Source: Candidatus Latescibacterota bacterium
GTDB taxonomy: Bacteria > Latescibacterota > UBA2968 > GCA-2709665
NCBI GenBank assembly: GCA_965248435.1
Contig: OZ252100.1
Coordinates: 5,056,001-5,120,000, forward strand
DNA: 64,000 bases
Direction: 5' to 3'
Part shown: positions 3,799 to 63,938 of the stretch, one piece after another
Layout: each line of letters begins with the position of its first letter
Position numbering within the stretch: the stretch's first letter is position 1
Translations under genes and position numbers: made by a program
Notes under the pieces: model-generated
Seen by the model: the letters and a program-made list of their open reading frames with translations, nothing else
What the model was told of the DNA's origin: nothing
The model's database searches: none

Positions 3799-6138
3799 AT
3801 GTCTGATACACAAGAAAGGGAGAGCCTGGAACTGGAGCCGGAAGGGGATCAAGCCCCTGAGGCGGTTCGTACGCGCTCCGAAGATGCCCTAAAGGCACTT
3901 GACGAAAGCGAGTACTCAGACGAAGAGTTCGAAGAGATGATGGGTCTCTACGAAGACACGCTGCAAAACATCAAGGAAGGCGAAATCGTCAACGGAACCG
4001 TCCTCGCCATCGACGAAAACGGTGTTGTCGTGGATATCGGATTCAAGTCAGAGGGTTCGATTCCCGTGTCTGAGTTCACCGACCCTTCGGAAATCGAGGT
4101 CGGCCAGGAGATCGAGGTCTACCTGGAGACCGTCGAAGATAACGAAGGCCAGATCGTCCTGTCCAAGCAGAAGGCCGATTTCATGCGGGTCTGGGATCGG
4201 ATCAAGGAGGCCTACGATAACGATCAGATCATAGAGGGGCGTCTGGTGCGCCGAATCAAGGGCGGGATCGTCGTCGACTTGTTCGGCGTGGACGCTTTTC
4301 TTCCCGGCTCCCAGATCGATATCAAACAGGTCAAAAACTTCGACCAGTTCATCAACGAGGTTTTTCCGTTCCGCATCATCAAACTGAACAAGGCCAGGCG
4401 GAACATCGTCGTATCCCGACGCGTGGTTCTTGAAGAGGAGCGGGCACGGCTCCGCAAGCAAATTCTCGAAACGCTGGAGGTCGGGCAGATTCGAGAGGGA
4501 GTCGTCAAGAATATCACTGACTTTGGAGCGTTCATCGACCTGGGCGGCCTGGACGGCTTGCTCCACATCACGGATATCTCCTGGGGACGCGTCGGGCATC
4601 CTTCCGAGGCCCTGGGCATCGGAGACCAGTTGCAGGTGAAGGTCCTGAATTACGACGAGGAGAGAGAGCGCATCTCCCTGGGGATGAAGCAGCTCACACC
4701 GCATCCCTGGGAAGAAATCGACGAAAAGTACGTGGTAGACACACGCGTCATGGGCCGGGTCGTCAGCATCACGGACTACGGCGCCTTTGTGGAACTGGAA
4801 CGCGGGGTTGAGGGGCTTGTTCATATATCTGAAATGTCCTGGACCCAGCATATCCGGCATCCTTCAAAAATCCTGACGATCGACGATGAGGTCGAGGTCC
4901 TTATCCTCAACGTGGACAAGGAAGGCCAGAAGATCTCACTCGGTTTGAAGCAGGTGACGCCCGATCCCTGGCTGACGCTGGATGAAAAATACCCGCCCGG
5001 GAAGAGGATGAACGGCAGGGTGCGAAATCTAGTGAATTTCGGCGCATTCGTGGAGATCGAGGAGGGCATCGACGGTCTCGTTCACATTTCAGACATGTCG
5101 TGGACGAAGCGTATCCGGCACCCCAGCGAGATCGTCCAGAAGGCCGATGAAGTAGAGGTTGTCGTCCTCAGCGTCGACAAGAGTCGCAGACGCATATCCC
5201 TCGGCCTTAAACAGACCCTCGAGAATCCGTGGGCGGAACTCGCGGTTCGCTACGCCGTGGGCCAACAGACGCACGGCAAAATCACGAGGCTTCTCGAGCG
5301 CGGCGTCGTCGTCGATCTGGAAGGGGATGTGGAGGGATTCGTACCCGTGTCACAGGTCGGCATTCCCGACCTGAAGCATCCCCAGAGTCATTTCTCCGAA
5401 GGGGACGACCTGCCGATGAAGGTCGTGGAATTCGACGAAGAGCAGAGGAAGATCGTCCTGAGTGTTCGGGAGTATCTACGCGATGCCGAGCAGGCAGAAG
5501 TGAATGAATACATCGAAAGTCACAAGGCGCGCCCGGTGACCGTCCAGGAGTTCGTGGCCGAGGATGCGGAAGGCGATGCCTGGGGGGGTGTGGGAACATC
5601 CGCGCCCGATGCTGGGACCGGGGGTGACGTCGCTGAGGAAGGAACCACTGAGGTCGAAGTCGCGGTCGGTGATGAGGCAGATCAGGAAAGCGACGTCGTC
5701 TCCGCCGAACCGTCTGCCGAGGACGCAGGAGACACCGAGGGTCCGCAGGCCGCCGATGAATCCGCATCAGACGTGTTCGCTGAGGAAGGAAGCGCCGGGG
5801 TCGACGTCGCGGTCGGTGATGAGGCAGATCAGGCGAGCGATGCAGTCTCTGATGAAACGTCCGCCGGTCCCGAGGCTTTGGCACCCGCCGTGTCCGATGA
5901 AGTGGCGGTCGGCGATGAGGCCGATCAGGCGAGCGATGCAGTCTCTGATGAAACGTCCGCAGGTCCCGAGGCTTTGGCGCCCACCGTGTCCGATGAAGTG
6001 GCGGTCGGCGGAACAGAGGAAGTGGCGGAGTCGTCTGAAACTTCTGAACCTGACGCCGCGGAAGAGGAATTCAAATCGGATGATGAGGGGGAAGAGAACG
6101 GACCCGCGGCCGAGAGGGAGGATGAACCTCAGGCGTGA
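3799..6138 (+). CDS. rpsA: 30S ribosomal protein S1 with a long acidic, repeat-containing C-terminal extension
   Basis: Six S1 domains (DIGFKSEG, AFLPGSQ, FGAFIDLGGLDGLLHITD, GLVHISEMSW and others); ATG at 3799 follows GGAGG. Confidence 0.95.
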   Translation: MSDTQERESLELEPEGDQAPEAVRTRSEDALKALDESEYSDEEFEEMMGLYEDTLQNIKEGEIVNGTVLAIDENGVVVDIGFKSEGSIPVSEFTDPSEIEVGQEIEVYLETVEDNEGQIVLSKQKADFMRVWDRIKEAYDNDQIIEGRLVRRIKGGIVVDLFGVDAFLPGSQIDIKQVKNFDQFINEVFPFRIIKLNKARRNIVVSRRVVLEEERARLRKQILETLEVGQIREGVVKNITDFGAFIDLGGLDGLLHITDISWGRVGHPSEALGIGDQLQVKVLNYDEERERISLGMKQLTPHPWEEIDEKYVVDTRVMGRVVSITDYGAFVELERGVEGLVHISEMSWTQHIRHPSKILTIDDEVEVLILNVDKEGQKISLGLKQVTPDPWLTLDEKYPPGKRMNGRVRNLVNFGAFVEIEEGIDGLVHISDMSWTKRIRHPSEIVQKADEVEVVVLSVDKSRRRISLGLKQTLENPWAELAVRYAVGQQTHGKITRLLERGVVVDLEGDVEGFVPVSQVGIPDLKHPQSHFSEGDDLPMKVVEFDEEQRKIVLSVREYLRDAEQAEVNEYIESHKARPVTVQEFVAEDAEGDAWGGVGTSAPDAGTGGDVAEEGTTEVEVAVGDEADQESDVVSAEPSAEDAGDTEGPQAADESASDVFAEEGSAGVDVAVGDEADQASDAVSDETSAGPEALAPAVSDEVAVGDEADQASDAVSDETSAGPEALAPTVSDEVAVGGTEEVAESSETSEPDAAEEEFKSDDEGEENGPAAEREDEPQA
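5806..6009 (+). repeat. 96-bp (32-aa) in-frame tandem repeat in the rpsA tail
   Basis: VAVGDEADQASDAVSDETSAGPEALAP(A/T)VSDE units start at 5806 and 5902, with a partial copy at 5998 and a diverged copy at 5659. Confidence 0.9.
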
Positions 6139-6210
6139 TGTGTCCGGGGGAGTGTGTGTCCTGTTTCTTCAAAGAGTTGAGGAAAACTTCCTCAGCTCTT
6201 TGTCGTATCT

Positions 6211-7524
6211 ATGCTGAAAGATTATATGCACAACAAGCGGGTTTCATTCTACACGTTGGGGTGTAAGCTCAACGCATACGATACGGAATGGTACCGACAG
6301 CAGTTCGAGGGGTCGGGCTATCGCGTCGTCGCGTTCGGTGAGCCGGCTGACGTCACGGTCGTGAATACGTGCACAGTTACAGGCGCGGCTGACGCGCAAG
6401 CGCGCCAGGCGCTTCGCAGGGCGCACCGGAACTCTCCCGAGGGGACGGTCGTTGCCGTGGGGTGCTACGCGCAGACCGATCCAGACACGCTCGCCGACAT
6501 GCCTGAAGTCGACCTGGTCGTGGGGACGAGGGAGAAGACACAGTTGCTCGACCTGATCAACGACACCTGTTCGATCGGCCGAAGTTTCGTCACGCGCAGC
6601 AGGGCCTCCGAGTTTCAGGATATGGACATCTCCAACTTCGGGACTCGGGCGCGCGCCTTCGTCAAGATCCAGGAGGGGTGCAACGAGTTCTGCAGCTTCT
6701 GCATCATTCCTTTCGCGCGAGGACGCAGCAGGAGCCGCACCCTGGAAAGCACGGTCAATCAGGTGCAGCGTCTCGCGGCCGAAGGCTACCAGGAGGTGGT
6801 CCTCACCGGCGTGCATATCGGAGACTATGCCGATGGGGAGGGCGGGGGGCTTCTGGAGGTCCTGGAGGCGCTTGAAGGCCTGGATGGCCTCCGGCGATTC
6901 CGGGTCAGCTCGATCGAAGCGTCCTACGTCACGGATGCGATGATCGATTTTTTCGCGGCATCAGAGAAGTTCTGCCGTCACCTGCACGTCCCGCTCCAGA
7001 GCGGGGATGATCGAATCTTGAAGGCGATGCGGAGGCCCTATTGCCGTGCCGAATATCTGGACCTGGTCGGCCGCCTGCAGGACCGCATTCCGGGCATCGG
7101 CATCGGTGGCGACGTGATGGTCGGGTTCCCCGGAGAGACGGAGGCGGCGTTCCAGAACACTTATGACTTGATCTCGCAAAGCCCGATGGTCTACCTGCAC
7201 GTCTTCCCCTATTCACCGAGGGGGAACACGCCTGCCGCGAGGATGGCCGATCAGGTCGACCCAAAGGTGAAGAAGGAACGCGCTGGAGCCCTTCGCGAGC
7301 TCGGCGAGCAGAAGGCGCTTGCCTTTCGGTCTCAATTTGTAGGAGAGCAACTGGAAGTCCTGTTCGAAAACCGGAGGGAGCCCGCCACGGGATTCCTTCA
7401 GGGGGTGTCCGACAACTACATTCGATGTTTTGCCCCCGGACCCGATTCCGCGATAGATCAGATCCGTCAGGTCCGTCTGAATCAGGAGGAAGACGGCCGG
7501 ATGGTGGGTGAGATCGTCGACTAG
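6211..7524 (+). CDS. mtaB: tRNA t6A37 methylthiotransferase (radical SAM)
   Basis: TLGCKLN, NTCTVT, GCYAQ, CNEFCSFC radical-SAM motif, LTGVHIG and HVFPYSPRGNTPAA. Confidence 0.9.
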   Translation: MLKDYMHNKRVSFYTLGCKLNAYDTEWYRQQFEGSGYRVVAFGEPADVTVVNTCTVTGAADAQARQALRRAHRNSPEGTVVAVGCYAQTDPDTLADMPEVDLVVGTREKTQLLDLINDTCSIGRSFVTRSRASEFQDMDISNFGTRARAFVKIQEGCNEFCSFCIIPFARGRSRSRTLESTVNQVQRLAAEGYQEVVLTGVHIGDYADGEGGGLLEVLEALEGLDGLRRFRVSSIEASYVTDAMIDFFAASEKFCRHLHVPLQSGDDRILKAMRRPYCRAEYLDLVGRLQDRIPGIGIGGDVMVGFPGETEAAFQNTYDLISQSPMVYLHVFPYSPRGNTPAARMADQVDPKVKKERAGALRELGEQKALAFRSQFVGEQLEVLFENRREPATGFLQGVSDNYIRCFAPGPDSAIDQIRQVRLNQEEDGRMVGEIVD

Positions 7525-8972: not shown

Positions 8973-9521
8973 CTAGAACCTCAATGACGCGGTCAGCGCC
9001 AGAGCACCATCCTGACGGGGCAAGACGCCCACTCGTATACGCTCCAAAGGTACGGATTCCCAAATATCGCTTTCCATGCTTGCACCAATTGCAGTGCCGA
9101 ATACCAGGCCAATGCCGCCCAATACACCCCCCAAAATCAGGGCCTTATCTTGGGCAGTGAAGAGGCCCGATTCATCATCATCACCACCGGCAAACCCTAT
9201 GATTGCGCCAACAGCCCCACCTGAAACGAGCCCGAAAAGGGCACCGTTTGCTAGATTCCCCTTCGATCCGGTGCGCACGTCGAGTCTTTCAAGCGAAGCA
9301 ATGGGAATGGCCAAGAGAGCAGCGTCCTTCTTCGCCCTGAACTGGATCGTATCGCGGCTTACTGTTACAGCCGTTCCCACAAGCCGGTGCTTAGATACGG
9401 AACGCGCCATGATTCGCACACGTGCGCCGGGAGTAACAGGCAAAGACTCCTGTGCCAAAGAGGGCACCCAAAGGATGTGGATCAAAAAGGCACCCATCAG
9501 AACAGCATTCAGATGTTTCAT
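8973..9521 (-). CDS. Exported hypothetical protein with a glycine-zipper hairpin and C-terminal Phe
   Basis: ATG at 9521 after GGAGG; signal peptide; GALFGLVSGGAVGAIIG and GGVLGGIGLVFGTAIG; ends ALALTASLRF. Confidence 0.7.
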   Translation of the reverse strand: MKHLNAVLMGAFLIHILWVPSLAQESLPVTPGARVRIMARSVSKHRLVGTAVTVSRDTIQFRAKKDAALLAIPIASLERLDVRTGSKGNLANGALFGLVSGGAVGAIIGFAGGDDDESGLFTAQDKALILGGVLGGIGLVFGTAIGASMESDIWESVPLERIRVGVLPRQDGALALTASLRF

Positions 9522-9601
9522 CACGAACCCTCCACCTATGAGTTGGCCGCTACTAGAATTGCGCTTATCCATTTCACGGTTGACCCTCCGGATGATTGCG
9601 G

Positions 9602-10054
9602 CTAGACGCCGAGACGCGTAGCTACGAAGTTTATTGCTCGATTACTGGATCCAGCAAATGCCGCGGTTTCAGGATCGAACCTGTATCCCTCCCTGGTGGG
9701 TCTGACTTCTACGACCCCCTGGGGTGCGAAAAAGCTCACTCGGTACTCCCCGTTCACATTGGTCAAGGTGCGTCTTGTTTCCGCGACGGGATCGACGATT
9801 GTCATGGTTATGGCCACGTCAGGAACTCTCGTTTCAACAGAATTACGGTACTCGACCACAGTACCTGTGATCGCCCAATGTTGGCTTTCGGTGGAGTCAG
9901 AATGGGAACTATTTGGGCTTTCACAGCCACTCCCGCCCGTACTTCCACCGCCACCTGAACTTTTACTTTGAGTCTGGCAGTTTACGATCAGGAGCATTCC
10001 AAACAGGAAGGGAATCCCCAGTCTGAACGTGCGATTGAGCCTCGAGTTTGTCAT
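9602..10054 (-). CDS. Putative lipoprotein with a carboxypeptidase-regulatory/transthyretin-like beta domain (paralog 3 of 3)
   Basis: Shared leader MTNSRLNRTFRLGIPFLFGMLLIVNC, GGSGC, VEVRPTREGYRFDP and NFVATR. Confidence 0.75.
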   Translation of the reverse strand: MTNSRLNRTFRLGIPFLFGMLLIVNCQTQSKSSGGGGSTGGSGCESPNSSHSDSTESQHWAITGTVVEYRNSVETRVPDVAITMTIVDPVAETRRTLTNVNGEYRVSFFAPQGVVEVRPTREGYRFDPETAAFAGSSNRAINFVATRLGV

Positions 10055-10075
10055 CTTTCAGTCCTCCCTGGAATG

Positions 10076-10495
10076 CTAACCGCCAGTCCGCGAAGCCGTA
10101 AAGTTTACCCCCCCGCGAGGACGTCCACGATAGACCGTGGGATTGAATCTGTATCCCTCCCTTGATGGCCGGACTTCCACCGAGTTCACACCCCCGACGT
10201 GCAACCGGAAATTTCCGCCGCCGTTGGTCTTGACCTTGAGGATGTTGCTTGCGGCCGCTTGTGGATTGATGATCACGGACAGAGTAACGTCGGGCACGTT
10301 CGTTACGACACCATTGCGGGACTCGAACACGGTTCCACTGACCACCGTTTGAACATGTGGGGTTTGTGTCGGGGCCACGGGACTTGCGCAGCCGCTCCCA
10401 CTTCCGCCCTCAGATACGCAGTTGACGACCAGCATCATCCCGAAGAGGATCGGGATCCCCGTTCTGAGCGTGCGGTTGAACCTGGAGTTAGTCAT
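10076..10495 (-). CDS. Putative lipoprotein, same family (paralog 2 of 3)
   Basis: MTNSRFNRTLRTGIPILFGMMLVVNC, GSGC, VEVRPSREGYRFNP and NFTASR. Confidence 0.75.
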   Translation of the reverse strand: MTNSRFNRTLRTGIPILFGMMLVVNCVSEGGSGSGCASPVAPTQTPHVQTVVSGTVFESRNGVVTNVPDVTLSVIINPQAAASNILKVKTNGGGNFRLHVGGVNSVEVRPSREGYRFNPTVYRGRPRGGVNFTASRTGG

Positions 10496-10517
10496 TTCTT
10501 AACTCCCATCGAGACTG

Positions 10518-10964
10518 CTAGACGCCAGAGCGCGAAGCTGTAAAGTTCAGGGCCTGGCTGGGAGGTCCCCGAAAGACTTCAGGATCGAACCTGTATCCCG
10601 CCTTTGTCGGCCTGACTTCTACCTCCCCTGCCCGTGGGCTGAGTTCCAGCCGGAACTGTCCGTTGATGTCGGTCTTGACCGTCATTACGTTCAGGACCCG
10701 GGGTTTGGTCCCGTAAGATTGATGCGTTTTGACTGTAACCGTCACGGCGACGCCGGGAACTTTCGTCTTGCCGGAACCTTGGGACTCGATTATGGCACCG
10801 CCGACCACCTTGGGTCTTGGGGCTCCGCCTCCTTGAGACATATTCGGCATCTCGCAGCCGCTCCCGCCTTTGCTTCCCTCCGACGCGCAGTTCACGACCA
10901 GCATCATTCCGAACAGGAAAGGGATGGTCATTCTCAACGCTCGATTGGATCCTGGATTCGTCAT
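10518..10964 (-). CDS. Putative lipoprotein, same family (paralog 1 of 3)
   Basis: MTNPGSNRALRMTIPFLFGMMLVVNC, GGSGC, VEVRPTKAGYRFDP and NFTASR; GGGAGG RBS. Confidence 0.75.
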   Translation of the reverse strand: MTNPGSNRALRMTIPFLFGMMLVVNCASEGSKGGSGCEMPNMSQGGGAPRPKVVGGAIIESQGSGKTKVPGVAVTVTVKTHQSYGTKPRVLNVMTVKTDINGQFRLELSPRAGEVEVRPTKAGYRFDPEVFRGPPSQALNFTASRSGV

Positions 10965-11029
10965 CTCTGACCTCCCAGTTTTCGGACTTAGTTTCGATCA
11001 AAGAATCTATCTCTCTACCCGGTCTCCAT

Positions 11030-11045
11030 TGCAAGCCCCGTGCCG
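11030..11045 (-). promoter_or_regulatory. Sigma54 (-24/-12) promoter for the lipoprotein operon
   Basis: Minus strand CGGCACG-GGGC-TTGCA matches YGGCACG-N4-TTGCW, about 65 bp upstream of the start at 10964. Confidence 0.7.
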
Positions 11046-11490
11046 CTTCAGTGAATCCGTTCTTTGAATGCTTTTAAGGGTAATATTTACAATGGTATAG
11101 GAGGGTATTTCGGACGGCCGTGTCTCTGAATCCTGGTATCTGGAAGACTGCATAGACTTGCGCTTCTTTGCGCGAAGCTTCGCGAGATGGCATAGCGTCG
11201 CTTTCGGAATAGGTTTTGGTGAAGGGCTCGATCTCATATCGCGTCGCCCCCAGCGAACAAGGAATTTCCTCTACCCAATCTCCGAGGATCCGCTATATTC
11301 CTTCCAGGCGCCTCTAGCTGGAGTTGCCTCGTTTCATCCAGTGGTTGCAGCGGGCGCTGACCTCTCCCTCGCTGAAGAACACACCGAACTCTCCTCCATA
11401 GATCCTGTCCATTCGAAGCCACGCAGGCCTTTGACCCCGATCCGTTCATCGGAGTTCAATGGTCTCAAGTGTCAGCCTTGTCCCGAATCC

Positions 11491-11961
11491 ATGATCTCGA
11501 TCGATCGCGCCGAGCCCTCAGATTTTCTGGCCATCGCCCATCTGGATCGCATCGCCTGGCTGAAGTATCCTCAATCCGAGTTCATCCCGGACGGCGAACA
11601 CGTCTGGCGGCTCTGGGTCGAGCACGCGTTCGTCTACTGCGCCAGGGAGGCGGACAGTATCGTCGGGGCGGTCCTCGTCTTTCCGACGTTGACCGGACCG
11701 TTCTGCCTCCACAAGGCTTTTGTGGCAGAGGAACACCGGGGGAAAGGGATCGGGACGAAGCTGATCGACGCCGTCCTGTCGGAGGTGGATGATGCGGGAG
11801 GGGACTGTTTTCTGACTGTCAACCCCTCCAACGAGGCGGCGCTGCGGCTTTACGAGTCCTGGGGGTTCACGGAGCGGAAGTTTGTGGCCGGGTTCTACCG
11901 GGAACAGGAGGATCGGTTCGTGCTCACGCGCAGGGCCGCGAACGGGCGCGGGGCCGAATGA
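11491..11961 (+). CDS. GNAT family N-acetyltransferase
   Basis: FVAEEHRGKGIGTKL and VNPSNEAALRLYESWGF; likely start ATG 11491. Confidence 0.85.
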   Translation: MISIDRAEPSDFLAIAHLDRIAWLKYPQSEFIPDGEHVWRLWVEHAFVYCAREADSIVGAVLVFPTLTGPFCLHKAFVAEEHRGKGIGTKLIDAVLSEVDDAGGDCFLTVNPSNEAALRLYESWGFTERKFVAGFYREQEDRFVLTRRAANGRGAE

Positions 11962-12590
11962 TACTGTTCGTCGCGATCTTCATTCCGGCCGTACTGCTGC
12001 TGCAGGCCAACCCCTTCGCCCTGTTCGAGGCGGGCCGCTTCGAAGCGGCCAGGGCAGGCTTCGAGCGCCGGCTGGAGACCCGTCCGAACGACCCGGAGGC
12101 GCTTTACTTTCTTGGACGGCTTTCACCATCAGGGGCGGTGTCCAGGGGCTTCTTCGAAAGGCTGCTGGCGGCACACCCGAAGCACGCGCTGGCGGATGAC
12201 GCCCTTTTCGAGCTGGCCGAGGCCGACTACGGCGGGGGACAGGGGCTCTACCTCACGGCCCGGCGCCGTTATCGACGCCTTCTGTCTTCCTATCGCGACA
12301 GCCCCCTGGCGCCGCGGGCCCACTACAGAGTCGGGCTGACCTTTCTGATCACCCGGAAGCCAGACTCCGCGGCCGTCGCGTTCAGGGCCGTGCTGGACCG
12401 GTTCCCGAGGTCTGATGTCAGGGCGCTTGCCCACCTCGGCATCGTGGACGCGAACGTCCAGGGGAATCACAGGGAAGCGGCGCTGCGGGAGGCGGAGGCC
12501 TTGCTGGCCAGTGATCCGGAAGGGATAAGAGAGATTGTGGAGGAGCGCATTCGACGGTTGAAATACGCCAGCGCTGGGGGAATGGAGTAA
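11958..12590 (+). CDS. Secreted TPR protein (YbgF/BamD-like repeats)
   Basis: Signal peptide; ALYFLG, ADDALFELA and APRAHYRVG TPR helices with xP.S.xA linkers. Confidence 0.75.
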   Translation: MILFVAIFIPAVLLLQANPFALFEAGRFEAARAGFERRLETRPNDPEALYFLGRLSPSGAVSRGFFERLLAAHPKHALADDALFELAEADYGGGQGLYLTARRRYRRLLSSYRDSPLAPRAHYRVGLTFLITRKPDSAAVAFRAVLDRFPRSDVRALAHLGIVDANVQGNHREAALREAEALLASDPEGIREIVEERIRRLKYASAGGME

Positions 12591-12770
12591 TGGAGTATTG
12601 GAGTAATGGGAAACAAGAATCCGGAGTATTGGAGATTTGGAAAACTATGGCCGAATGCAGTCCGTTTATCCAACACTCCATCATTCCAGTACTGTCATAC
12701 TACAGAATCCCAGAGCCCGTAGCTTGACGAACAGCAATGAGGAATGGAGTAATTTGGATTGATGGAATAC
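12581..12770. repeat. Octamer (TGGAGTAW) tandem arrays in forward-inverted-forward arrangement upstream of the four-helix-bundle gene
   Basis: aatggagtaatggagtattggagtaatggg at 12581; inverted tccaacactccatcattccagtact at 12669; ggaatggagtaatttggattgatgg at 12741. Confidence 0.85.
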
Positions 12771-13337
12771 ACTACTTTCAGAAATAAAAACCGCGGGTAC
12801 ATGAAGTTGGAGGTCTGGCAGAAGTCGATGGAACTTTTCGACTTTACATGGAGATTGGTTAAGAATTCAGATGTCGACCTCAGGCTTCGGTCACAGATTT
12901 ACGGTTCTGTTCAATCAATTTCGGCGAATATCGCTGAAGGGTATTCTCGTCGTACCGTGAACGATTATCTGAGGTTTCTGTACATATCTCTTGGTTCATT
13001 GTCGGAATCCCTGACGAGGCTGGCTGGCCTGAAGGAAACGGGTCAGATCTCAAGCTCGCAGTTCGAAGAAATAGACAAGCTCCACTACGAGGTCGAAAAC
13101 AAGCTTTTGAGGCTCGTGCAGTCGCTTGAAAACAAGAAAGATGAAGGGTCTTGGATGGACCGAATTTCAGAAGAGGAGGAAATATATATCCCGGGTTCTG
13201 AGAGTCTAGAACTGGATAAGGAGAGTAATGAGAACGCAGACGTTCCAATACTCCAACACTCCAGTACTGCAATACTCCAGAGTCGGGCAGCTGAAAAGCT
13301 GGTAACAGGGGATTGGAGTAAGCGAGGTAATGGATAG
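12762..13337 (+). CDS. Four-helix-bundle protein (TIGR02436 / 23S rRNA IVP-like)
   Basis: KLEVWQKSMEL, SQIxxSVQSISANIAEGYSR and YLRFLYISLGSLSESLT; more AT-rich than its neighbours. Confidence 0.9.
   Translation: MEYTTFRNKNRGYMKLEVWQKSMELFDFTWRLVKNSDVDLRLRSQIYGSVQSISANIAEGYSRRTVNDYLRFLYISLGSLSESLTRLAGLKETGQISSSQFEEIDKLHYEVENKLLRLVQSLENKKDEGSWMDRISEEEEIYIPGSESLELDKESNENADVPILQHSSTAILQSRAAEKLVTGDWSKRGNG
13243..13335. repeat. Inverted octamer array at the 3' side of the four-helix-bundle gene
   Basis: ttccaatactccaacactccagtactgcaatactccag, then forward ggattggagtaa running into the mutS start. Confidence 0.85.
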
Positions 13338-15990
13338 GAAAATAGAAAAAGGAACCACACCGGCCATGGAGCAGTTTCTGGGCTTCAAGGCCGAATACCC
13401 GGACGCCATTCTGCTGTTTCGGATGGGGGACTTCTACGAGACCTTCTACGATGACGCGGTGGAGGCGTCCCACCTGCTGGGCCTGACCCTGACCGCACGC
13501 AACAACGGCCGTACGGACAAGGTGCCCATGGCCGGGGTTCCCCATCATGCCGTGGACGCCTATCTCGCCCGGTTGATCAAGGCCGGAAAGAAGGTGGCCA
13601 TATGCGAGCAGATGGAGCCGCCCCAGGCAGGAAAAAAGATCGTGCGTCGTGAAGTCGTTCAGGTGGTCTCTCCAGGCACGGCACTTTCAGAGAACCTGCT
13701 GGATCAGAGGAGAAACAACTACCTCGCAGCGCTCTGTCTCCTGGATGACCGGGTGGGTCTGGCCGTGATCGATCATTCGACGGGCGCCTTCCGGGTGTCG
13801 GAGGACAGCCCCGACCGCCTCTGGGAGGCGCTGCAGAGCGTCGATCCGGCCGAGATCGTCGCGCCGGAGTCCTGGGCGGAGGCCAACGAAACATTGTGTC
13901 TCCAGAAGTTGCCCGGTGCTGTTCTGAGCGGTTACGAGGAGTGGACCTTCAGTTACAACTACGCCTACGATGCCCTTCGGGAGCAGTTTCGAGTCTCCTC
14001 CCTCAAAGGGTTCGACTGCGAGGATTTGAAGGCGGGGATCTGCGCGGCGGGTGGAGCGGTCGCATATCTCAAGCGAAACCAAAAGGGCGAGCTTTCTCAC
14101 CTTACCCGCATGTCCCGGGAACGTACAGGGGTCTCGATGACCCTGGATCTGGTGACCCAGCGGAATCTGGAGCTGATTACGTCCATTCAGGAGCATCGAC
14201 GAGATGGCACGCTGCTTTCCGTGTTGGACAGAACGGGCACCTCTATGGGTGCTCGAATGATCCGAACCTGGCTGACCGCCCCTCTGTTGGAGATCTCCAG
14301 GATCGACGCTCGGCTGGACGCAGTGGAGGAATTCGTTCAGGCACCGGCGTTGAGAGCTGCAGTTCGTGAGGGGCTTCGAGACGTGGGGGATCTGGAGCGA
14401 CTGATGTCCAGGGTCTGCTGCGGCCGAGCCAATCCCCGGGACGTGGCGGGGCTGAAGACGTCGGTGCTTGCCCTGCCGCCCCTTCGGGATGCGCTCCAGG
14501 AGGCCTGTTCCCGGCTGCTGAAAACGATACGGGAAGCGGAGATGCCCGACCTGGGGCGGCTCGCCGATCTGATCGACCAAACGCTGGCAGAGGAGCCCCC
14601 AGCTACGCTGAGCGATGGGGGAATCATCCGGAAGGGTTTGAACGCGGATCTGGATGAGCTCAGGGAAGTGGCCTCGGGCGGGCGATCGTGGGTCGCCGCC
14701 CTGCAGACCCAGGAACGCAAGCGAACGGGTATTCCTTCATTGAAAGTGGGCTACAACAGGGCATTCGGATATTACATCGAGGTGACGAAGGCGAACGCAG
14801 ATCGCGCGCCGAGCGACTACATCCGAAAACAGACCCTGGTGAATGCCGAAAGGTATATCACGCCCGAGCTGAAAGACTGGGAGGCCAGGATCCTGGGGGC
14901 CGACGATCGGGCGAAGGAGCTTGAAAAGGAGCTGTTTCTCCAGTTGATACAGAAAATCGCGGGATGGGTCGAGGCTGTTCAGTGGAACGCCCGGAGCGTG
15001 GCCAGGGTGGATGTCCTGGCTTCGCTGGCAGAGGTGGCTGCGTTGAACGACTATGTCCGTCCGACCGTTGTGGAGGATAAAGTCATCCAGATCGATGCGG
15101 GCCGTCATCCGGTCGCGGAACAGCTCTTGCCCGACGGGAAGTTCGTGCCGAACGATGTCCTCGTGGACGCGCAGCAGGCGCAGATCCTGATCATCACCGG
15201 TCCGAACATGGCCGGGAAGTCGACGATCCTGCGCCAGGTCGGTCTGATCGTGATGATGGCCCAGCTGGGCAGCTTCGTGCCAGCAGCATCGGCGAGGGTG
15301 GGCGTCGTGGACCGGATCTTTACGCGCGTGGGCGCTTCGGACAATCTCGCCGCGGGAGAAAGTACCTTCCTGGTGGAGATGAACGAGGCCGCCAACATCC
15401 TCAACAATGCGACGCCCAGGAGCCTGGTGCTCCTGGATGAGATCGGAAGGGGGACGAGCACCTTCGACGGGTTGAGCATCGCGTGGGCGATGACGGAGCA
15501 CCTGCACAATTCCGCGGGAATCTGTCCACGGACGCTTTTCGCGACCCATTATCACGAGCTTACGGAACTGGAGGAGGTCCTGCCTCGTGTGGTGAATCAG
15601 AGTGTGGCCGTTCGCAAGGTGGGGGATGAGATCGCCTTCCTGCACCGGCTCGTGCCAGGGGGATGTGATCGGAGCTACGGGATCGAGGTCGCACGATTGG
15701 CCGGTATGCCGACCGAACTGATTGCGCGCGCCAAGGAGGTCCTCGCTCGGCTGGAAACGAACGACCTGACGCTGAAGGGCTCGGCTGTCAGCCGCTCACG
15801 ACGTCGGAATGAACGCACCGATCAGATGGGTCTGTTCGCACCGGGCGAGGAACCGCCAGCCCAGCCGGAAGCGCATCTCATCCTGTCGGAACTTCGGGAC
15901 CTGGATATCGGGAACACAACACCTGTCGAGGCCCTGCGAAGGCTGGATGCGTGGAAACGGCAGGTCGATGGGGAAGGAACGAACCCCTAA
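13330..15990 (+). CDS. mutS: DNA mismatch repair protein MutS
   Basis: FRMGDFYE, PMAGVP, ITGPNMAGKST, DRIFTRVGASD, STFLVEM, DEIGRGTST and FATHYHEL. Confidence 0.98.
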   Translation: MDRKIEKGTTPAMEQFLGFKAEYPDAILLFRMGDFYETFYDDAVEASHLLGLTLTARNNGRTDKVPMAGVPHHAVDAYLARLIKAGKKVAICEQMEPPQAGKKIVRREVVQVVSPGTALSENLLDQRRNNYLAALCLLDDRVGLAVIDHSTGAFRVSEDSPDRLWEALQSVDPAEIVAPESWAEANETLCLQKLPGAVLSGYEEWTFSYNYAYDALREQFRVSSLKGFDCEDLKAGICAAGGAVAYLKRNQKGELSHLTRMSRERTGVSMTLDLVTQRNLELITSIQEHRRDGTLLSVLDRTGTSMGARMIRTWLTAPLLEISRIDARLDAVEEFVQAPALRAAVREGLRDVGDLERLMSRVCCGRANPRDVAGLKTSVLALPPLRDALQEACSRLLKTIREAEMPDLGRLADLIDQTLAEEPPATLSDGGIIRKGLNADLDELREVASGGRSWVAALQTQERKRTGIPSLKVGYNRAFGYYIEVTKANADRAPSDYIRKQTLVNAERYITPELKDWEARILGADDRAKELEKELFLQLIQKIAGWVEAVQWNARSVARVDVLASLAEVAALNDYVRPTVVEDKVIQIDAGRHPVAEQLLPDGKFVPNDVLVDAQQAQILIITGPNMAGKSTILRQVGLIVMMAQLGSFVPAASARVGVVDRIFTRVGASDNLAAGESTFLVEMNEAANILNNATPRSLVLLDEIGRGTSTFDGLSIAWAMTEHLHNSAGICPRTLFATHYHELTELEEVLPRVVNQSVAVRKVGDEIAFLHRLVPGGCDRSYGIEVARLAGMPTELIARAKEVLARLETNDLTLKGSAVSRSRRRNERTDQMGLFAPGEEPPAQPEAHLILSELRDLDIGNTTPVEALRRLDAWKRQVDGEGTNP

Positions 15991-16230
15991 GAACCGGGTA
16001 CCGGGATAGGTAGATAGGTTACAGAGACCTGACGGTTTGGGGGCGACGCCTGCGTCGCCCCGGGAAATCAAGACACGGGTACCGGGTACCGCAAGGCCTG
16101 AAAGCCATTCAATTGCGGATTGCGGATTTGGGATTGGCGATTGAAAGGCTGTCCCCTCCTTGGAGGAGTGCCCGGTTCGCAGTTCACAGGGGATAGCTGC
16201 GGCACGATGTAAGCAGGGGGCGGGGTGGGT
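15988..16230 (+). repeat. Mosaic of intergenic repeats: GGTACC element, GC-rich palindrome, GCGGATT heptamers and a CCCCTCC-type half element
   Basis: taagaaccgggtaccggg; gggcgacgcctgcgtcgccc; gggaaatcaagacacgggtaccgggtaccgcaa; caattgcggattgcggatttgggattg; gtcccctccttggaggag...ggggtgggt. Confidence 0.8.
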
Positions 16231-16353
16231 AATTTGGCGAGCGGAAATGAATCAGGGGTCCGACGACATAATGTCGGGCCCCTTTGTCGTTCCTCGAATC
16301 TGAACGTTGTTCATCGTGCGGTCGGCGGTCGGCCGTCCGCGGTCTGCCCTTGG

Positions 16354-18543
16354 CTACGCATCGTCCGGCGCTTCGTCCACGCGCTGCACATCTGTCACAC
16401 CCCGTACTTCGAGGAGCTTCTTAAAAAGCGTGGCGAGTTGATCTCTGCTTTTGATTTCAACCAGGAATCGGTCGCCAACGACGCCGTCCGCGGATTTTAA
16501 CTCGCCTTCGAGCACCTGGACCCCCTGGTCGGACATGGCGTGAGTGACGTCCCGTAAAAAGTTGGGCCGGTCTTCACCCGAGACTTTGATCTCGATCGAA
16601 TAGGAGACTTCCTGTTCCGTGTCCCAGTCCAGATCCAGGATGCGATCTTGCTCCACTTCCGAGTTCGAGACATTGAGGCAGTCCCTCCTGTGCACTGAAA
16701 CACCCCGGCCGCGAGTGATGATCCCCAGGATCGGATCGCCCGGGATGGGCCGGCAGCAGCGCGCAAAGTGGGTCAGCAGGTTGTTGAGGCCCCGAATGTT
16801 GATGAGGCTCTTGTGGTCGTTGCGTGAAGGCTCGGTCCGGAGCGGCCGGATCGCGGGACGGGCCTTCGGGAAAAGTTTTTGAAAGACTCTGTCCAGGCTA
16901 ACGTCCCCGTTGCCGATTCCCGCGTAGAGCTGTTCCGCGTTCCGAAATCCGGTGTCGACCGCCGCCTGAAGGAGCTTCTCGTCCTCGACCCGTTTCCTGC
17001 GTTTCTTGAGTTCCCGGCTGACCATGTCCCGGCCGAGCTTCACGCTCTGCGAGTGTTCCTCCTCTCGAAGCCAGCGGCGAATTCGACTCCGGGCCTTCGC
17101 GCTCTTGATGAAATGCAGCCAGTCTCGACTGGGATGCTGATGCGGGGAGGTCATCACCTCGACCGTATTCCCGGTCTGAAGCGCGGTCGATAGCGGGACC
17201 ATCTGCCCCTTGACCCTCGCCCCCGTGCAGCGCAGCCCGATGTCCGTATGTATCGCAAACGCAAAATCGATCGGGGTGGCGCCCTCGGGGAGCCTGATAA
17301 GATCGCCCTTGGGTGTGAACACGAATATCTCTCTCGGAAAGAGGTCGACCTTCAGATCTTCCATGAACTCCTGAGGGTCGGTCGTCTCTCTAATCCATTC
17401 GAGAAGACCGCGGAGCCAGACGACGTGTCGGTCCAGGTCGGAGGGTGCCTGCTTCCCCTCCTTGTATCGCCAATGAGATGCGATTCCGACCTCGGCGATT
17501 TGATGCATCTCCCACGTCCTGATCTGGACTTCCATCATCATCCCTTTTGGCCCGATGATGGTCGTGTGAAGGGATTGATACATGTTCGCCTTGGGCGTCG
17601 CGATAAAGTCCTTGAACCTGGCCATGACCGGGGTGTAGAGGCTGTGGACGATACCGAGCACCTCGTAGCATTCGGGGACCGTGTTGAGGATGATCCTTAC
17701 GGCCATCAGGTCATACATCTCATCGATGGACACGCCGCGGCGTTTCATCTTACCGTATATGCTGTAGTAACTCTTGGGTCGCCCCGTGATATCGGCTTCG
17801 ATTTCCGCCTTTTCCAATGCCTGCTGGATCGGCAGCCGGGCCTCCTCGATATAGGCCTCGCGTTCCTCCTTCGTTAGATTGATCCTCTCCTCGATCGTCT
17901 GGTAGGTCTCAGACTCCAGCCATTTGAGGCTCAAGTCTTCCATCTCTGCGCGGATGCGGGCCATGCCGAGACGATGCGCGAGGGGGGCATAGATGTCTCT
18001 GCTTTCGAGCGCCATCCTTTGTTGGATGTCAGGCTCGAGGAACTGCAGGGTGTGCAGATTATGGAGGCGGTCTGCGAATTTGATCAGCACAACGCGGATG
18101 TCCTTGACCGTAGAAAGGAGCATCTTGCGGAAGTTCTCGGCCTGTTCCGCTTCGGGCGATTGGAAGGTGAGGTCTTTGATACGGGTCACGCCGTCGACGA
18201 GCGTCGCGATCGCCTCCCCGAACTCGGTTTCGATGTCGCCGAGTGGGACATCGGTGTTCTCGACGACGTCGTGGAGCAGGCCGGCTGCCACCGTGGAGGA
18301 ATCCAGGTTGAGCTCTGCGATGATGTTCGCGACCTGGGTTACGTGGTGGATGTAGGGCTGTCCTGATTTTCTGAATTGGTTCTCGTGGACGCGTTCGGCG
18401 AACTCGTAGGCTCTGGAGATCAACTCCACGTCGTGGTTATGCCGGACGGCCGAAGCGGCCTTGAGAAGTTCCTGGAGTCCGAAGGGTCTGGAGTCTGCGG
18501 GGATGAAATCCGAAGCGGCGTTATGCTCGACAAGCGATGCCAA
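16354..18543 (-). CDS. spoT: Long RelA/SpoT homologue, (p)ppGpp synthetase/hydrolase
   Basis: HD domain, ADRLHN, YAPLAHRLG, GRPKSYYSI, YQSLHT, EVQIRT, TGS domain (VFTPKG...DFAFAIHT), CCxPIPGD and ACT domain. Confidence 0.95.
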   Translation of the reverse strand: MASLVEHNAASDFIPADSRPFGLQELLKAASAVRHNHDVELISRAYEFAERVHENQFRKSGQPYIHHVTQVANIIAELNLDSSTVAAGLLHDVVENTDVPLGDIETEFGEAIATLVDGVTRIKDLTFQSPEAEQAENFRKMLLSTVKDIRVVLIKFADRLHNLHTLQFLEPDIQQRMALESRDIYAPLAHRLGMARIRAEMEDLSLKWLESETYQTIEERINLTKEEREAYIEEARLPIQQALEKAEIEADITGRPKSYYSIYGKMKRRGVSIDEMYDLMAVRIILNTVPECYEVLGIVHSLYTPVMARFKDFIATPKANMYQSLHTTIIGPKGMMMEVQIRTWEMHQIAEVGIASHWRYKEGKQAPSDLDRHVVWLRGLLEWIRETTDPQEFMEDLKVDLFPREIFVFTPKGDLIRLPEGATPIDFAFAIHTDIGLRCTGARVKGQMVPLSTALQTGNTVEVMTSPHQHPSRDWLHFIKSAKARSRIRRWLREEEHSQSVKLGRDMVSRELKKRRKRVEDEKLLQAAVDTGFRNAEQLYAGIGNGDVSLDRVFQKLFPKARPAIRPLRTEPSRNDHKSLINIRGLNNLLTHFARCCRPIPGDPILGIITRGRGVSVHRRDCLNVSNSEVEQDRILDLDWDTEQEVSYSIEIKVSGEDRPNFLRDVTHAMSDQGVQVLEGELKSADGVVGDRFLVEIKSRDQLATLFKKLLEVRGVTDVQRVDEAPDDA

Positions 18544-22503: not shown

Positions 22504-23028
22504 ATGCCGGGTACCGGGAAATCAAAACACGGGTATCGGGTACCGCAAAACCGGGCATCTTGGATCGTGATTCGTAATCGAAACTACTCGCGATCTAAAT
22601 GACCCGTAGGGGCAGGCCTCCGCGCCTGCCCTTAAATCTTTCACCAAGTAAATGACACCCCCGGTACCCGGTACCGGAATGCCGGGTACCGGGAAACCAA
22701 AACACGGGTATCGGGTACCGCAAAACCAGGCATCTTGGATCGTGATTCGTAGTCGAAACTAGCCGCGATCTAAATGACCTGTAGGGGCAGGCCTCCGCGC
22801 CTGCCCTTAAATCTTTCACCAAGTAAATGACACCCCCGGTACCCGGTACCCAGAATGCCGGGTACCGGGAAATCAAAACACGGGTATCGGGTACCGCAAA
22901 ACCGGGCATCTTGGATCGTGATTCGTAATCGAAACTACTCGCGATCTAAATGACCCGTAGGGGCAGGCCTCCGCGCCTGCCCTTAAATCTTTCACCAAGT
23001 AAATGACACCCCACGGTACCCGGTACCC
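22504..23028 (+). repeat. Three near-identical tandem copies of a 175/176-bp composite unit
   Basis: Units start at 22504, 22679 and 22855; each has the GGTACC element, CGTGATT-type heptamers and a GTAG-REP hairpin (gtaggggcaggcctccgcgcctgccc). Confidence 0.95.
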
Positions 23029-24982: not shown

Positions 24983-25053
24983 CCGTTCATCAATTGCGGA
25001 TTGCGGACCGAACTTGCCGCCGCACGGCTTGACCATCAGAGTCCTGGCGCCGG

Positions 25054-26100: not shown

Positions 26101-26146
26101 TGTGCGAAATCGCCCGCGCTCTTCCCTCGAAGGCGGTTGGGTTCTT

Positions 26147-26327
26147 CGCGTCAGGGCAGGTCTCCTGGCTTTCGACGGCCGCTCCCGGCCTTCCCGGTCT
26201 TGAATGACCAGTGGCTATCCGCGAGAGGGCCTGACGTCGATCACAGTGGCGGGGCCACGCCGGATTCTCACCGGCTTCCCTATTCTCCGGATTGGACGAA
26301 CTGTCCTTCCGGCACCAGTGACGCAGG
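26147..26327 (-). ncRNA. Cobalamin riboswitch
   Basis: Minus strand GGTGCC...AATAGGGAAGCCGGTGAGAATCCGGCGTGGCCCCGCCACTGTG...GGGAAGG...AGCCAGGAGACCTGCC (B12 box), upstream of btu-like genes. Confidence 0.95.
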
Positions 26328-26672
26328 TGCGACAAATATAGGAGTAACCGACTGTTTCTCAAAGTGCTTTCTCGAAGAGCACCCGCCCGATCTCAGAGAT
26401 CTCGAATCGAACAGTTTCAAAGGAATTGTGCCCTACATGACCGTGCCCTATATTGCTCCCTCAAATTGCTCAGAACAAAATGTTGAGAATATTAGCAGAA
26501 GCTCCAATTTTGGTGTAAATGGTCACATACTGAAAGTCGCACATAACCTAACTTACAGGTTAGGTGAATACCATTTAGCACACCGTACGCAGTCCGTGCC
26601 CAGGTGGTCACGGGGTCGTACCCGGTAGGAGCCGTCTCCAGACGGCGAACAGTTCATCAGAAGGGAGGGTTT

Positions 26673-36200: not shown

Positions 36201-36254
36201 GTAAGTGATTCGTGGATCGTGAATCGTCGTTCGCAATCCAGACATCGTAGAGGC

Positions 36255-36372
36255 ATGCCCTACAGGTCATTTGGATCGCGAGTAATTGGGTTCGAATAGG
36301 GAACCACGATACCCGCTTTTACGGTACCCGGTACCCGTGTTTTGGTTCCCCGGTACCCGGTTCTTACGATCC
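36255..36372 (-). repeat. Dispersed single copy of the 175-bp-unit family (minus strand)
   Basis: Reverse complement reads gatcgtaagaaccgggtaccggggaaccaaaacacgggtaccgggtaccgtaaaa...tactcgcgatccaaatgacctgtaggg, collinear with the 22504 unit. Confidence 0.85.
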
Positions 36373-62713: not shown

Positions 62714-62849
62714 AATTGCGGATTTGGGATTGCGGAATGATGGCTACTTCGACGTTCGCTATAATTGTTTCTAGTTTCTAGTTTCTAGTTCATATCAAAT
62801 CCGTCGCGAATACGCTTAACGGTTTGTCTTTCAACTCGAAACTCGAAAC
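62714..62849. repeat. Heptamer arrays upstream of tilS: GCGGATT run and an inverted pair GTTTCTA x3 / AACTCGA x2
   Basis: caattgcggatttgggattgcggaat; gtttctagtttctagtttctagtt (62767-62790) is complementary, with mismatches, to aactcgaaactcgaaac (62833-62849). Confidence 0.75.
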
Positions 62850-63914: not shown

Positions 63915-63938
63915 GCGAGATACGAGATACGAGATACG
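63915..63938 (+). repeat. GAGATAC heptamer x3
   Basis: gcgagatacgagatacgagatacg; same unit as at 50341-50489. Confidence 0.75.

Follow-up and report, generated by a model that had tools for sequence, protein, structure and literature searches.

A PF05635 gene enclosed by opposed octamer arrays between a TPR gene and mutS in a Latescibacterota genome, and related loci in operons of other phyla

The window analyzed here is a stretch of 64,000 nucleotides from Candidatus Latescibacterota bacterium (assembly GCA_965248435.1, contig OZ252100.1, positions 5,056,001 to 5,120,000 of the forward strand); all coordinates below are positions within it, unless a related locus is named. In the predicted transcript running from a tetratricopeptide repeat (TPR) gene to mutS, the window carries a foreign cassette of ∼780 bp (12560 to 13341), in which an open reading frame (ORF) for a four-helix-bundle protein of the PF05635/TIGR02436 family is bracketed by period-8 arrays of the octamer TGGAGTAW in opposed orientation. 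Related genes from at least eight phyla were found in the same setting, and we are confident that a conserved, selected cassette is the correct description of the anatomy of this feature. It represents a widespread kind of element that is apparently undescribed. The feature itself is real; as to its mechanism, we infer that a stem closes the cassette and is processed by RNase III, that the encoded protein binds the repeats, or both.

Architecture and recurrence of the cassette

Sequence inspection, an inverted-repeat scan, and a period-8 detector reproduced the array coordinates of an earlier note on this DNA and, on rereading, its order of elements (forward, inverted, forward, ORF, inverted, forward). 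Tandem Repeats Finder reported period-8 arrays at 12581 to 12609 (3.6 copies, 90% matches) and at 13244 to 13279 (4.5 copies, 78% matches). Exact TGGAGTA occurred nine times in the 64-kb window, and seven of these copies lay within 12583 to 13320; shuffling gave an expectation of 3.07 ± 1.82 per whole window, and none of 100 shuffles got to nine. With one mismatch allowed, the window total of TGGAGTAW was not enriched (54 matches versus 47.99 in shuffled sequence, equalled by 14 of 100 shuffles); 12 of the 54 matches fell in 12563 to 13321. The G+C content was 0.43 to 0.49 over 12500 to 13300 versus 0.61 to 0.70 on either flank, which bears out the earlier remark that the ORF is richer in AT than its neighbors and marks the region as compositionally foreign. 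No paralogue of the cassette protein was found in the window by tblastn. A consensus scan of 11900 to 13700 for sigma-70-like signals found no sense-strand promoter and no terminator, a consensus that says little for a nonmodel phylum.

Relatives of the enclosed gene were retrieved by two protein motifs only, GYM[KN]L[EDI]VW and [VI]S[SA]NI[AS]EGY, with the flanks ignored. The best 80 of the 497 relatives found (35 to 64% identity; the source genome is absent from these 80) were combined with the window to give 81 loci, labeled L plus a number where needed. The 80 loci came from Verrucomicrobiota, Ignavibacteriota, Bacteroidota, Poribacteria, Calditrichota, Acidobacteriota, Fidelibacterota, and Lentisphaerota. 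A strict detector (TGGA core, exact period 8, at least 3 units) revealed forward arrays upstream of the gene in 62 of the 81 loci, inverted arrays downstream in 63, and both in 52; the opposite arrangement was seen in none, and 8 loci had no detected array. Inspection by eye of these 8 showed arrays on both sides in 5, built either of degenerate TGGA units or on another core. Arrays with other cores included TGCATGNN in L077 and L079 and TGAATGNN in L080. Two loci had arrays only downstream (L050, which is cut at a contig end, and L058, with CATTAACC), and in L071 a forward and an inverted array both lay downstream. Arrays mostly comprised 3 to 6 units, with a range of 3 to 13 between loci, and the more divergent proteins (35 to 44% identity) were accompanied by other cores, namely TGCATG, TGAATG, and TGGAAG. 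The gene and its opposed arrays thus recur across many phyla as the self-contained module that the earlier note had proposed, and the pattern named there as speaking against it, a gene retained by relatives in the absence of repeats, was not observed.

The arrays are concentrated beside the family genes, with 140 arrays in 77.5 kb next to the genes (1.81 per kb) versus 34 in the remaining 752 kb (0.045 per kb), a difference of ∼40-fold. Base autocorrelation peaked at period 8, with values of 0.396 upstream and 0.377 downstream versus 0.24 to 0.32 at other periods. The two arms of a locus also resembled each other in sequence: unit positions 5 and 6 were each equal between the arms in 45 of the 52 two-armed loci, and matches summed over positions 5 to 7 amounted to 116 versus 78.9 ± 5.4 with permuted partners (maximum, 97 in 2,000 permutations). 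In a test independent of the core, an inverted 10-mer was common to both flanks in 50 of 77 loci (mean, 4.40). The corresponding controls yielded 7 of 114 geometries placed 3 kb away (mean, 0.13), direct sharing in 13 of 77 loci, and a mean of 0.95 with a noncognate flank. Sharing of 7-mers was abandoned in favor of 9- and 10-mers because its chance level was too high.

As the earlier note had supposed, the module sits inside operons. Both neighbors within 400 nt were co-directional with the family gene in 58 of the 81 loci (greedy ORF calls); taken separately, this held for the upstream neighbor in 72 of 73 callable loci and for the downstream neighbor in 63 of 71. A Pfam scan of 72 upstream proteins and of 33 of the 70 downstream proteins, one per context, distinguished at least 30 contexts, mostly between functionally linked operon genes. 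In ∼20 Verrucomicrobia loci, the cassette lay between an ABC ATPase and an ABC-2 permease; other pairs were a LolD-like ATPase and MacB-FtsX, MacB and MacB, SufB and SufC, thiolase and 3-hydroxyacyl-CoA dehydrogenase, xanthine-dehydrogenase subunits, two permeases, MoxR and a VWA protein, Lpd and a lipoyl ligase, Cas6 and Cas4-Cas1, and MutS2 and DnaG. None of the 72 upstream and 33 downstream proteins scanned with Pfam was an rRNA-related neighbor, and most matched protein-coding families. The upstream stop codon lay inside the array (8 loci) or at most 15 nt before it (29 loci) in 37 of 56 loci, the cassette ORF entered the inverted array in 35 of 63 and ran through the entire array in 24, and the downstream start codon lay inside the array or at most 40 nt from its end in 43 of 49. 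These stop, read-through, and start positions indicated that the arrays fill the operon spacer.

In two Verrucomicrobia clades, the ratio of nonsynonymous to synonymous substitution rates (dN/dS) of the ORF was ∼0.09, at a median dS of 1.8 and 0.9 (53 of 136 and 18 of 45 pairs used, after exclusion of those with dS ≥ 3). Arrays were still present in clades with dS of 0.9 to 1.8. Judged from these comparisons, selection maintains both the protein and the arrays. In a quick 79-row tree, 18 changes of phylum label were needed (minimum, 8; shuffled mean, 33.3). The window protein fell into an unresolved group together with Ignavibacteriota, Acidobacteriota, Calditrichota, and Bacteroidota rows, and the 17 Chthoniobacterales rows formed one clade with one operon context. 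The picture suggested by these sequences is that cassettes stay at a site through long vertical descent, are occasionally transferred, and occupy many independent sites.

Gene-less hairpin derivatives of the cassette exist. The 34 arrays distant from family genes were mostly forward-inverted pairs 20 to 90 nt apart, and such gene-less hairpins were present in L024, L038 (two), L042, L048, L049, L055 (two), and L076, where they had the unit class of the resident cassette. In L006, an internally deleted copy (4939 to 5087 of that locus) retained the upstream array and ∼25 codons from the start of the ORF, joined to the downstream array. This copy lay ∼1 kb upstream of the full copy, and the flanking sequence after its downstream array was the same as that of the full copy.

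Opposed arrays were also found in the wider protein family. Five more distant family genes were present in the flanks of the loci; one had no arrays, and four were bracketed by opposed arrays of other units, namely ATATGGT/ACCATAT (period 7), TTGTTGAA/TTCAACAA (period 8), GGTTGTAC/GTACAAC (period 11), and AGGTTG/AACCTT (period 6 to 7). In a plasmid sample from cultured cyanobacteria and Riemerella, 13 of 20 records with a relative were read. In Nostoc punctiforme PCC 73102, the cassette occupies 1617 to 1982 of plasmid pNPUN01. Opposed heptamer arms flanked 9 of these 13 plasmid-borne genes, with units that include CAGGAGT in N. punctiforme, GGGAACA in Nostoc sp. C052, GGTGACA in Anabaena sp. 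90, GGGTGTA in Calothrix brevissima, GGCAGAA in Stanieria, GGGAAAA in Geminocystis, and GGTTTAA in Riemerella; one Calothrix locus had the reversed orientation. Among the others of the 13, one had direct arrays on both sides, two had a downstream arm only and an adjoining insertion sequence (IS) element, and one had no arrays. A Pseudanabaena galeata plasmid (L086, ∼380 to 1070) is an exception, in which ∼16 AAAAGCT units directly precede the gene and ∼10 AAAAGCC units, likewise oriented, come after it; AGCTTTT, the inverted partner, sits further upstream.

A family gene was located between cas6 and cas4(-cas1) in the Poribacteria loci L071, L073, L074, and L076 (∼5800 to 6650), and the same cas6-cas4 placement was observed in the cyanobacterial plasmids L084 (Anabaena sp. 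90 pANA02) and L086 (P. galeata pPg_01). PF05635 is listed among CRISPR-linked domains (PMC10910872). The recurrence may reflect either a recurrent insertion site or a real functional link. PF05635 is also reported in rRNA insertions of candidate phyla radiation (CPR) bacteria (bioRxiv 10.1101/2024.02.27.582315).

The enclosed protein and the junctions with the TPR gene and mutS

The family and fold that the earlier note had assigned to the cassette protein hold. The protein matched the PF05635 profile with 81.2 bits (E = 7.5e-23; cutoff, 33.8) and the TIGR02436 profile with 83 bits (E = 1.5e-23; cutoff, 24). An AlphaFold2 model built from 17 aligned sequences contained helices at residues 17 to 35, 41 to 62, 67 to 93, and 99 to 129, with a mean predicted local distance difference test (pLDDT) score of 79 to 98, mostly >90, in 10-residue blocks over residues 21 to 120. 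The C-terminal tail from residue 133 onwards, which reads through the inverted array, was disordered (pLDDT < 50). Foldseek returned target-normalized template modeling (TM) scores of 0.88 for XCC0516 (2gsc), 0.85 for BT_0352 (2rld), and 0.83 for Avd (4dwl, at 12% identity). The sequence profile likewise matched 2gsc (E = 3.2e-14) and 2rld, both of which were deposited with five chains, and the Xanthomonas family protein is described as a homopentameric toroid (PMC4990558). By analogy with these entries and that description, a homopentameric ring may be predicted for the window protein. A homology search revealed 938 relatives with a typical length of 146 aa, the best of which, other than the protein itself, had 65% identity.

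Both ends of the ORF are written in repeat units. The likely start is ATG 12762 and not TTG 12759, because the database form comprises 191 aa and the homologues begin with MEY. The sequence ATGGAATAC, coding for M-E-Y, is the final repeat unit of the upstream array, and the homologues open with ATGGAATA(Y), encoding MEY, at the end of their own upstream arrays. The tail of the ORF, PILQHSSTAILQS, had been recognized earlier as translated repeat, and it is indeed the translation of the inverted array at 13243 to 13280. Several homologues in other phyla end in LQYSNTPILQYS, LQHSITP, or IQYSITPILQ, which is the same inverted octamer array translated; these tails were a first sign that the repeat travels with the gene.

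At the outer edges, the first array overlaps the TPR stop codon and the last reaches the mutS start, as had been stated before. The TPR stop TAA (12588 to 12590) lies inside the first repeat unit. The closest TPR relatives (95, 90, and 78% identity) end where the window protein does, after RIR(R/S)LK, with short tails that differ, and homologues at 50 to 61% identity are ∼100 residues longer and carry a SPOR domain. The TPR protein and its three closest relatives are without this domain, and the break point is the left edge of the cassette. On the other side, the mutS ATG at 13330 lies inside the last array and serves mutS; the stop codon of the cassette ORF (TAG, 13335 to 13337) overlaps there. 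A MutS relative with 81% identity begins with MEKGTTPAM, whereas the window reads IEKGTTPAM, an alignment indicating that the native mutS ATG is ATA here (13342 to 13344). Four codons upstream of this ATA, a new ATG in the same frame is provided by the array. The database annotation of mutS starts at a later ATG (13366) and loses the conserved TPAM residues. Named MutS relatives were from Latescibacteria and Gemmatimonadetes (53 to 67% identity).

The linkage between a TPR-SPOR gene and mutS is probably old, since relatives of both appear to share contigs (four cases). The best relative of the cassette protein had 65% identity, in a single-member cluster, even though relatives of the TPR protein reach 95, 90, and 78% and one of MutS reaches 81%. 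Judged from this contrast, close relatives seem to lack an orthologous cassette; contig ends or missed gene calls would be alternative causes. The features of the locus are listed in Table 1.

Table 1. Genes and repeat arrays at the TPR-mutS junction (window coordinates)
Feature	Position	Strand	Remarks
TPR (YbgF-like) gene, upstream neighbor	11958..12590	+	Last codons and stop from first repeat units
Forward array 1	12581..12640	+	Three TGGAGTAW units, then degenerate units; outer 5' arm
Inverted array 1	12669..12693	+	TCCA-type units; with array 1 capable of a local gene-less hairpin
Forward array 2	12741..12770	+	Last unit TGGAATAC holds start codon ATG 12762 and the M-E-Y codons
Four-helix-bundle protein gene	12762..13337	+	191 aa; PF05635/TIGR02436; folded domain at about residues 16 to 129
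Inverted array 2	13243..13280	+	TCCAATAC-type units; 3' arm; translated as PILQHSSTAILQS
Forward array 3	13309..13337	+	Carries mutS ATG 13330 and overlapping ORF stop TAG 13335-13337
mutS, downstream neighbor	13330..15990	+	NF003810, 1057.9 bits; Pfam MutS domains I to V, domain I from residue 10

Other array-bearing sequences were observed elsewhere in the window. A 175-bp unit is present in three tandem copies at 22504 to 23028, with more copies at 36205 to 36360 (reverse strand) and 15990 to 16136. In each unit, a 5' array of CGGGTAC-type heptamers pairs with a 3' array of the GGTACCC type, and one unit folds at −84.9 kcal/mol versus −50.6 ± 4.1 kcal/mol for shuffled sequences; it is a gene-less, array-closed element within the same genome as the cassette. 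The 360-bp spacer between mutS and a convergent gene for a RelA/SpoT-type (p)ppGpp synthetase/hydrolase (16354 to 18543, reverse strand) contains heptamer arrays and part of a 175-bp element. An IS30-like transposase ORF (HTH_38 and rve; 62880 to 63850, reverse strand) is flanked by differing heptamer arrays at 62715 to 62849 and 63916 to 63938, with units of ATTGCGG, GTTTCTA, and AACTCGA in one flank and of CGAGATA in the opposite flank; arrays of ATTGCGG are found further at 16112 to 16136 and 24993 to 25007. Three tandem paralogous ORFs of 139 to 150 aa (9602 to 10964, reverse strand) have a common lipoprotein-like N terminus (MTNSR.NR...FLFGM.L.VNC) and no Pfam match. Among RNA features, a cobalamin riboswitch (RF00174, 104.4 bits; 26138 to 26335, reverse strand) was the sole Rfam match in the whole window at the gathering threshold; Rfam matched no rRNA in the window, and a tRNA search of it found none.

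Potential pairing of the arms, proposed mechanism, and rival explanations

The earlier note had proposed that the arrays could pair into a long stem with the gene in the loop or, instead, into alternative hairpins, and the sequence has the capacity for both. The longest inverted pair found in a scan of 12500 to 13400 (12574 to 12609 with 13245 to 13280) spans 36 nt at 81% complementarity. Both the minimum free energy (MFE) and the centroid RNA fold of 12560 to 13360 close the module by pairing array 1 with the inverted array at 13244 to 13280, and over the 52 two-armed loci the arm duplex averaged 27.5 bp and about −40 kcal/mol. Per nucleotide, cognate arms formed a more stable duplex than noncognate arms (−1.05 versus −0.86). 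RNAduplex on flanks of 150 by 300 nt was dropped, as background swamped the signal (shuffles, −60 to −100 kcal/mol). Numbering forward (F) and inverted (R) arrays from 5' to 3', duplex energies in the window were −47.7 kcal/mol for F1-R2, −36.4 for F1-R1, −26.4 for F2-R1, −23.0 for F2-R2, and −24.0 for R2-F3. The local fold of 12570 to 12705 (−40.1 kcal/mol) resembles the gene-less hairpins of related loci. Given these alternative pairings, the locus looks like a gene-less hairpin (12581 to 12693), followed by a gene-bearing unit and a forward array.

Stems of 23S rRNA intervening sequences are cut by RNase III. In the mechanism we propose, the two arms would pair in the polycistronic RNA into an interrupted duplex of ∼27 to 36 bp that closes the cassette, in the topology of such an intervening sequence. 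Pairing or cutting could insulate the cassette, so that operons tolerate having it inserted between their genes. The upstream arm, which is G-rich, would double as ribosome-binding region for the cassette gene, read-through of the downstream arm would couple translation to the next gene, here mutS, and the cassette protein would probably recognize its own repeat unit. Taken as a whole, from closing stem and insulation to coupling and repeat recognition, we give this mechanism about an even chance of being correct.

Several observations weigh against it or against the breadth of its support. Many of the loci are kin (for example, the 17 Chthoniobacterales rows with one context), and the counts overstate independent events. 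The fold of the whole module (MFE, −240.5 kcal/mol) was only modestly better than those of 20 shuffles (−221.8 ± 6.7 kcal/mol; z = −2.79). In 36 of the 52 loci, the antisense duplex was slightly more stable than the sense duplex (mean, −41.8 versus −39.7 kcal/mol; Wilcoxon P = 0.01), so the duplexes lack the G-U signature that would mark an RNA stem on the sense strand. Unit variants did not follow a mirrored order in the two arms (0.655 versus 0.648 permuted; P = 0.27; no locus at or below 0.05), in a test that has little power at 3 to 5 units per arm; this indicates that the arms are like-typed opposed arrays, not base-for-base inverted copies. The TGGA core is near-constant across phyla and the other four unit positions vary, which a plain stem does not explain. 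Finally, Rfam searched on 12400 to 13500 at E values up to 5 gave only a chance match to a long noncoding RNA and no matching family.

A possible but less probable explanation is that the arrays are oriented putative binding sites and not a stem: a ring oligomer of the protein would bind about one unit per subunit, on RNA or DNA, on either side of its own gene. The outcome could be autoregulation; alternatively, the protein might draw the two cassette ends into contact, as subterminal repeat arrays do in some DNA transposons, so that the cassette and the gene-less hairpins are maintained or moved with a catalytic partner in trans. The core that stays constant over at least eight phyla within the subfamily while unit positions 5 to 8 vary, the missing sense-strand G-U signal, and the unmirrored unit order all fit binding sites. 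So do the other cores beside divergent proteins, the quite different units and periods of unrelated subfamilies, and the unit class that gene-less hairpins share with the resident cassette of the same locus. Array sizes of mostly 3 to 6 units stand beside the five chains each of 2gsc and 2rld and the pentameric toroid described for Xanthomonas (PMC4990558), and Avd, related by its fold, belongs to a ribonucleoprotein that contains diversity-generating retroelement (DGR) RNA (entry 8ub7 and others). However, coinheritance of gene and flanks also accounts for the association between clade and unit type. No recombinase, nuclease, or reverse transcriptase adjoins the cassette in the window, no target-site duplication could be defined, and the Chthoniobacterales clade of 17, in whose scanned loci an ABC ATPase lies upstream, points to long vertical stability and not to frequent movement.

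It is improbable that the host has co-opted the cassette as a mutS switch, in which gain or loss of units would alter translational coupling and thereby change the mismatch-repair level reversibly. Since the unit length, 8, is not divisible by 3, gain or loss of one unit shifts the stop of the cassette ORF; in silico, one unit more or less in 13243 to 13280 ended the ORF 33 to 43 nt before ATG 13330, without overlap. The copy number of 3 to 13 units between loci would suit such a switch, as would the ATA at the native mutS start and the usable ATG 13330 within the last array, overlapped by the cassette stop. However, the same cassette precedes unrelated genes in at least 30 contexts, which leaves nothing specific to mutS, and with a second in-frame ATG at 13366, the database start, mutS may not depend on coupling.

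We regard it as very unlikely that the arrays are functionless slippage repeats beside a hitchhiking gene, or an assembly artifact. Short-period repeats do arise easily, heptamer arrays are common in the window and in many genomes (PMC4679880), and most of the related loci come from metagenome bins; but the orientation is fixed (0 of 81 reversed), density beside the gene is raised ∼40-fold, cognate arms match, arrays persist at dS of 0.9 to 1.8, the loci were retrieved regardless of their flanks, and complete plasmids from cultured strains show this architecture too. That the gene encodes the Avd accessory protein of a DGR can practically be dismissed: the fold match to 4dwl, the DGR ribonucleoprotein entries, and the label Avd-like for PF05635 (PMC10053308) are set against a sequence identity of 10 to 12%, whereas 2gsc and 2rld match by sequence, and no template/variable pair was seen (the inverted-repeat scan of 12500 to 13400 gave mainly octamer-array pairs, and direct repeats were not scanned). 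The DGR reading is also contradicted at the locus itself, where 9000 to 18543 held no reverse transcriptase candidate among its long ORFs, which encode a GNAT protein, the TPR protein, MutS, and RelA/SpoT.

Relation to known elements and implications

The closest known counterparts of the cassette are ORF-bearing 23S rRNA intervening sequences (Leptospira, Coxiella, Xanthomonas, Brucella), which encode the same protein family. In the Coxiella intervening sequence, the family gene lies inside a 28-bp terminal stem that is cut by RNase III in vitro (PMC4990558, also the source of the further Coxiella details here). Both kinds of element loop out an ORF between complementary termini (36 nt at 81% in the cassette, 28 bp in Coxiella), have a G+C content below that of the host, and are distributed sporadically. 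Intervening sequences sit in helix 25 or 45 of 23S rRNA and have unique inverted repeats as termini; the cassette is flanked by protein-coding genes, here a TPR gene and mutS, and its arms are tandem 8-nt arrays. Purifying selection acts on the cassette protein, in contrast to the Coxiella ORF, which is reported to be in decay, and RNase III cutting, seen for Coxiella in vitro, would be a prediction for the cassette.

A second likeness is to short tandemly repeated repetitive (STRR) arrays. The STRR heptamers of filamentous cyanobacteria are hairpin-forming repeats of operon spacers for which roles in transcript stability or translational coupling have been proposed (PMC2670836), and the TAACTGA repeats of Beggiatoaceae, most of them in forward orientation, stop immediately ahead of a start codon, as do forward heptamers described in cyanobacteria and Bacteroidetes (PMC4679880). 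These repeats, with units of ∼7 nt, and the cassette arrays alike are short tandem units in operon spacers with hairpin potential, and the gene-less hairpins found here and the heptamer arms of cyanobacterial family genes look like the same kind of sequence. The window differs in its period of 8 and its noncyanobacterial host, and the cassette arrays form an oriented pair around a specific gene. A PF05635 gene is not mentioned in the available parts of either source (PMC2670836, PMC4679880), and no published link between the PF05635/TIGR02436 family and flanking arrays was found in literature that mostly did not cover subscription journals, so that a prior description is possible.

Correia/NEMIS elements of Neisseria are nonautonomous inverted-repeat elements that are cotranscribed into mRNA and cut by RNase III. 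Like the cassette, they are small elements in transcription units, with inverted ends that pair in RNA and scattered intergenic copies without a gene. Their ends are unique inverted repeats with target duplications, and they carry no protein gene; the cassette ends in unit arrays, its autonomous-looking copy carries a noncatalytic protein, and no target duplication was defined. Of the features of a transposon, the cassette has inverted ends; no target-site duplication could be defined, and no transposase adjoins it, the nearest being the IS30-like ORF at 62880 to 63850. Avd of DGRs shares the four-helix bundle (TM-score, 0.83) and is a nucleic-acid-associated ring oligomer; in contrast to Avd systems, with which sequence identity is 10 to 12%, the cassette locus showed no reverse transcriptase ORF within 9000 to 18543 and no template/variable repeat in a scan of 12500 to 13400 for inverted repeats.

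To our knowledge, no function has been assigned to PF05635/TIGR02436, a large family in which this one subfamily alone gave 938 relatives, since the description of ORF-bearing rRNA intervening sequences early in the 1990s, and STRR-like arrays have gone unexplained for about equally long. Subfamily-specific opposed arrays and joint selection within operons make the function of both directly testable. For annotation, translated-repeat tails such as ILQYSNTP are to be read as array read-through, and arrays can supply the stop and start codons of neighboring genes, as for the TPR gene and mutS. The association of PF05635 with CRISPR may reflect insertion of the cassette between cas6 and cas4. Tentatively, and well short of a firm conclusion, PF05635 proteins might be the sequence-specific partners of STRR-type arrays, in which case gene-bearing cassettes would be the autonomous form, hairpins their derivatives, and ORF-bearing 23S intervening sequences a special case. 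The arrays scattered through operon spacers in cyanobacteria, Bacteroidota, Verrucomicrobiota, and many other phyla would then fall under one reading, with each protein subfamily recognizing its own unit. If true, this would explain together what the intervening-sequence protein does and where STRR arrays and rRNA intervening sequences come from.

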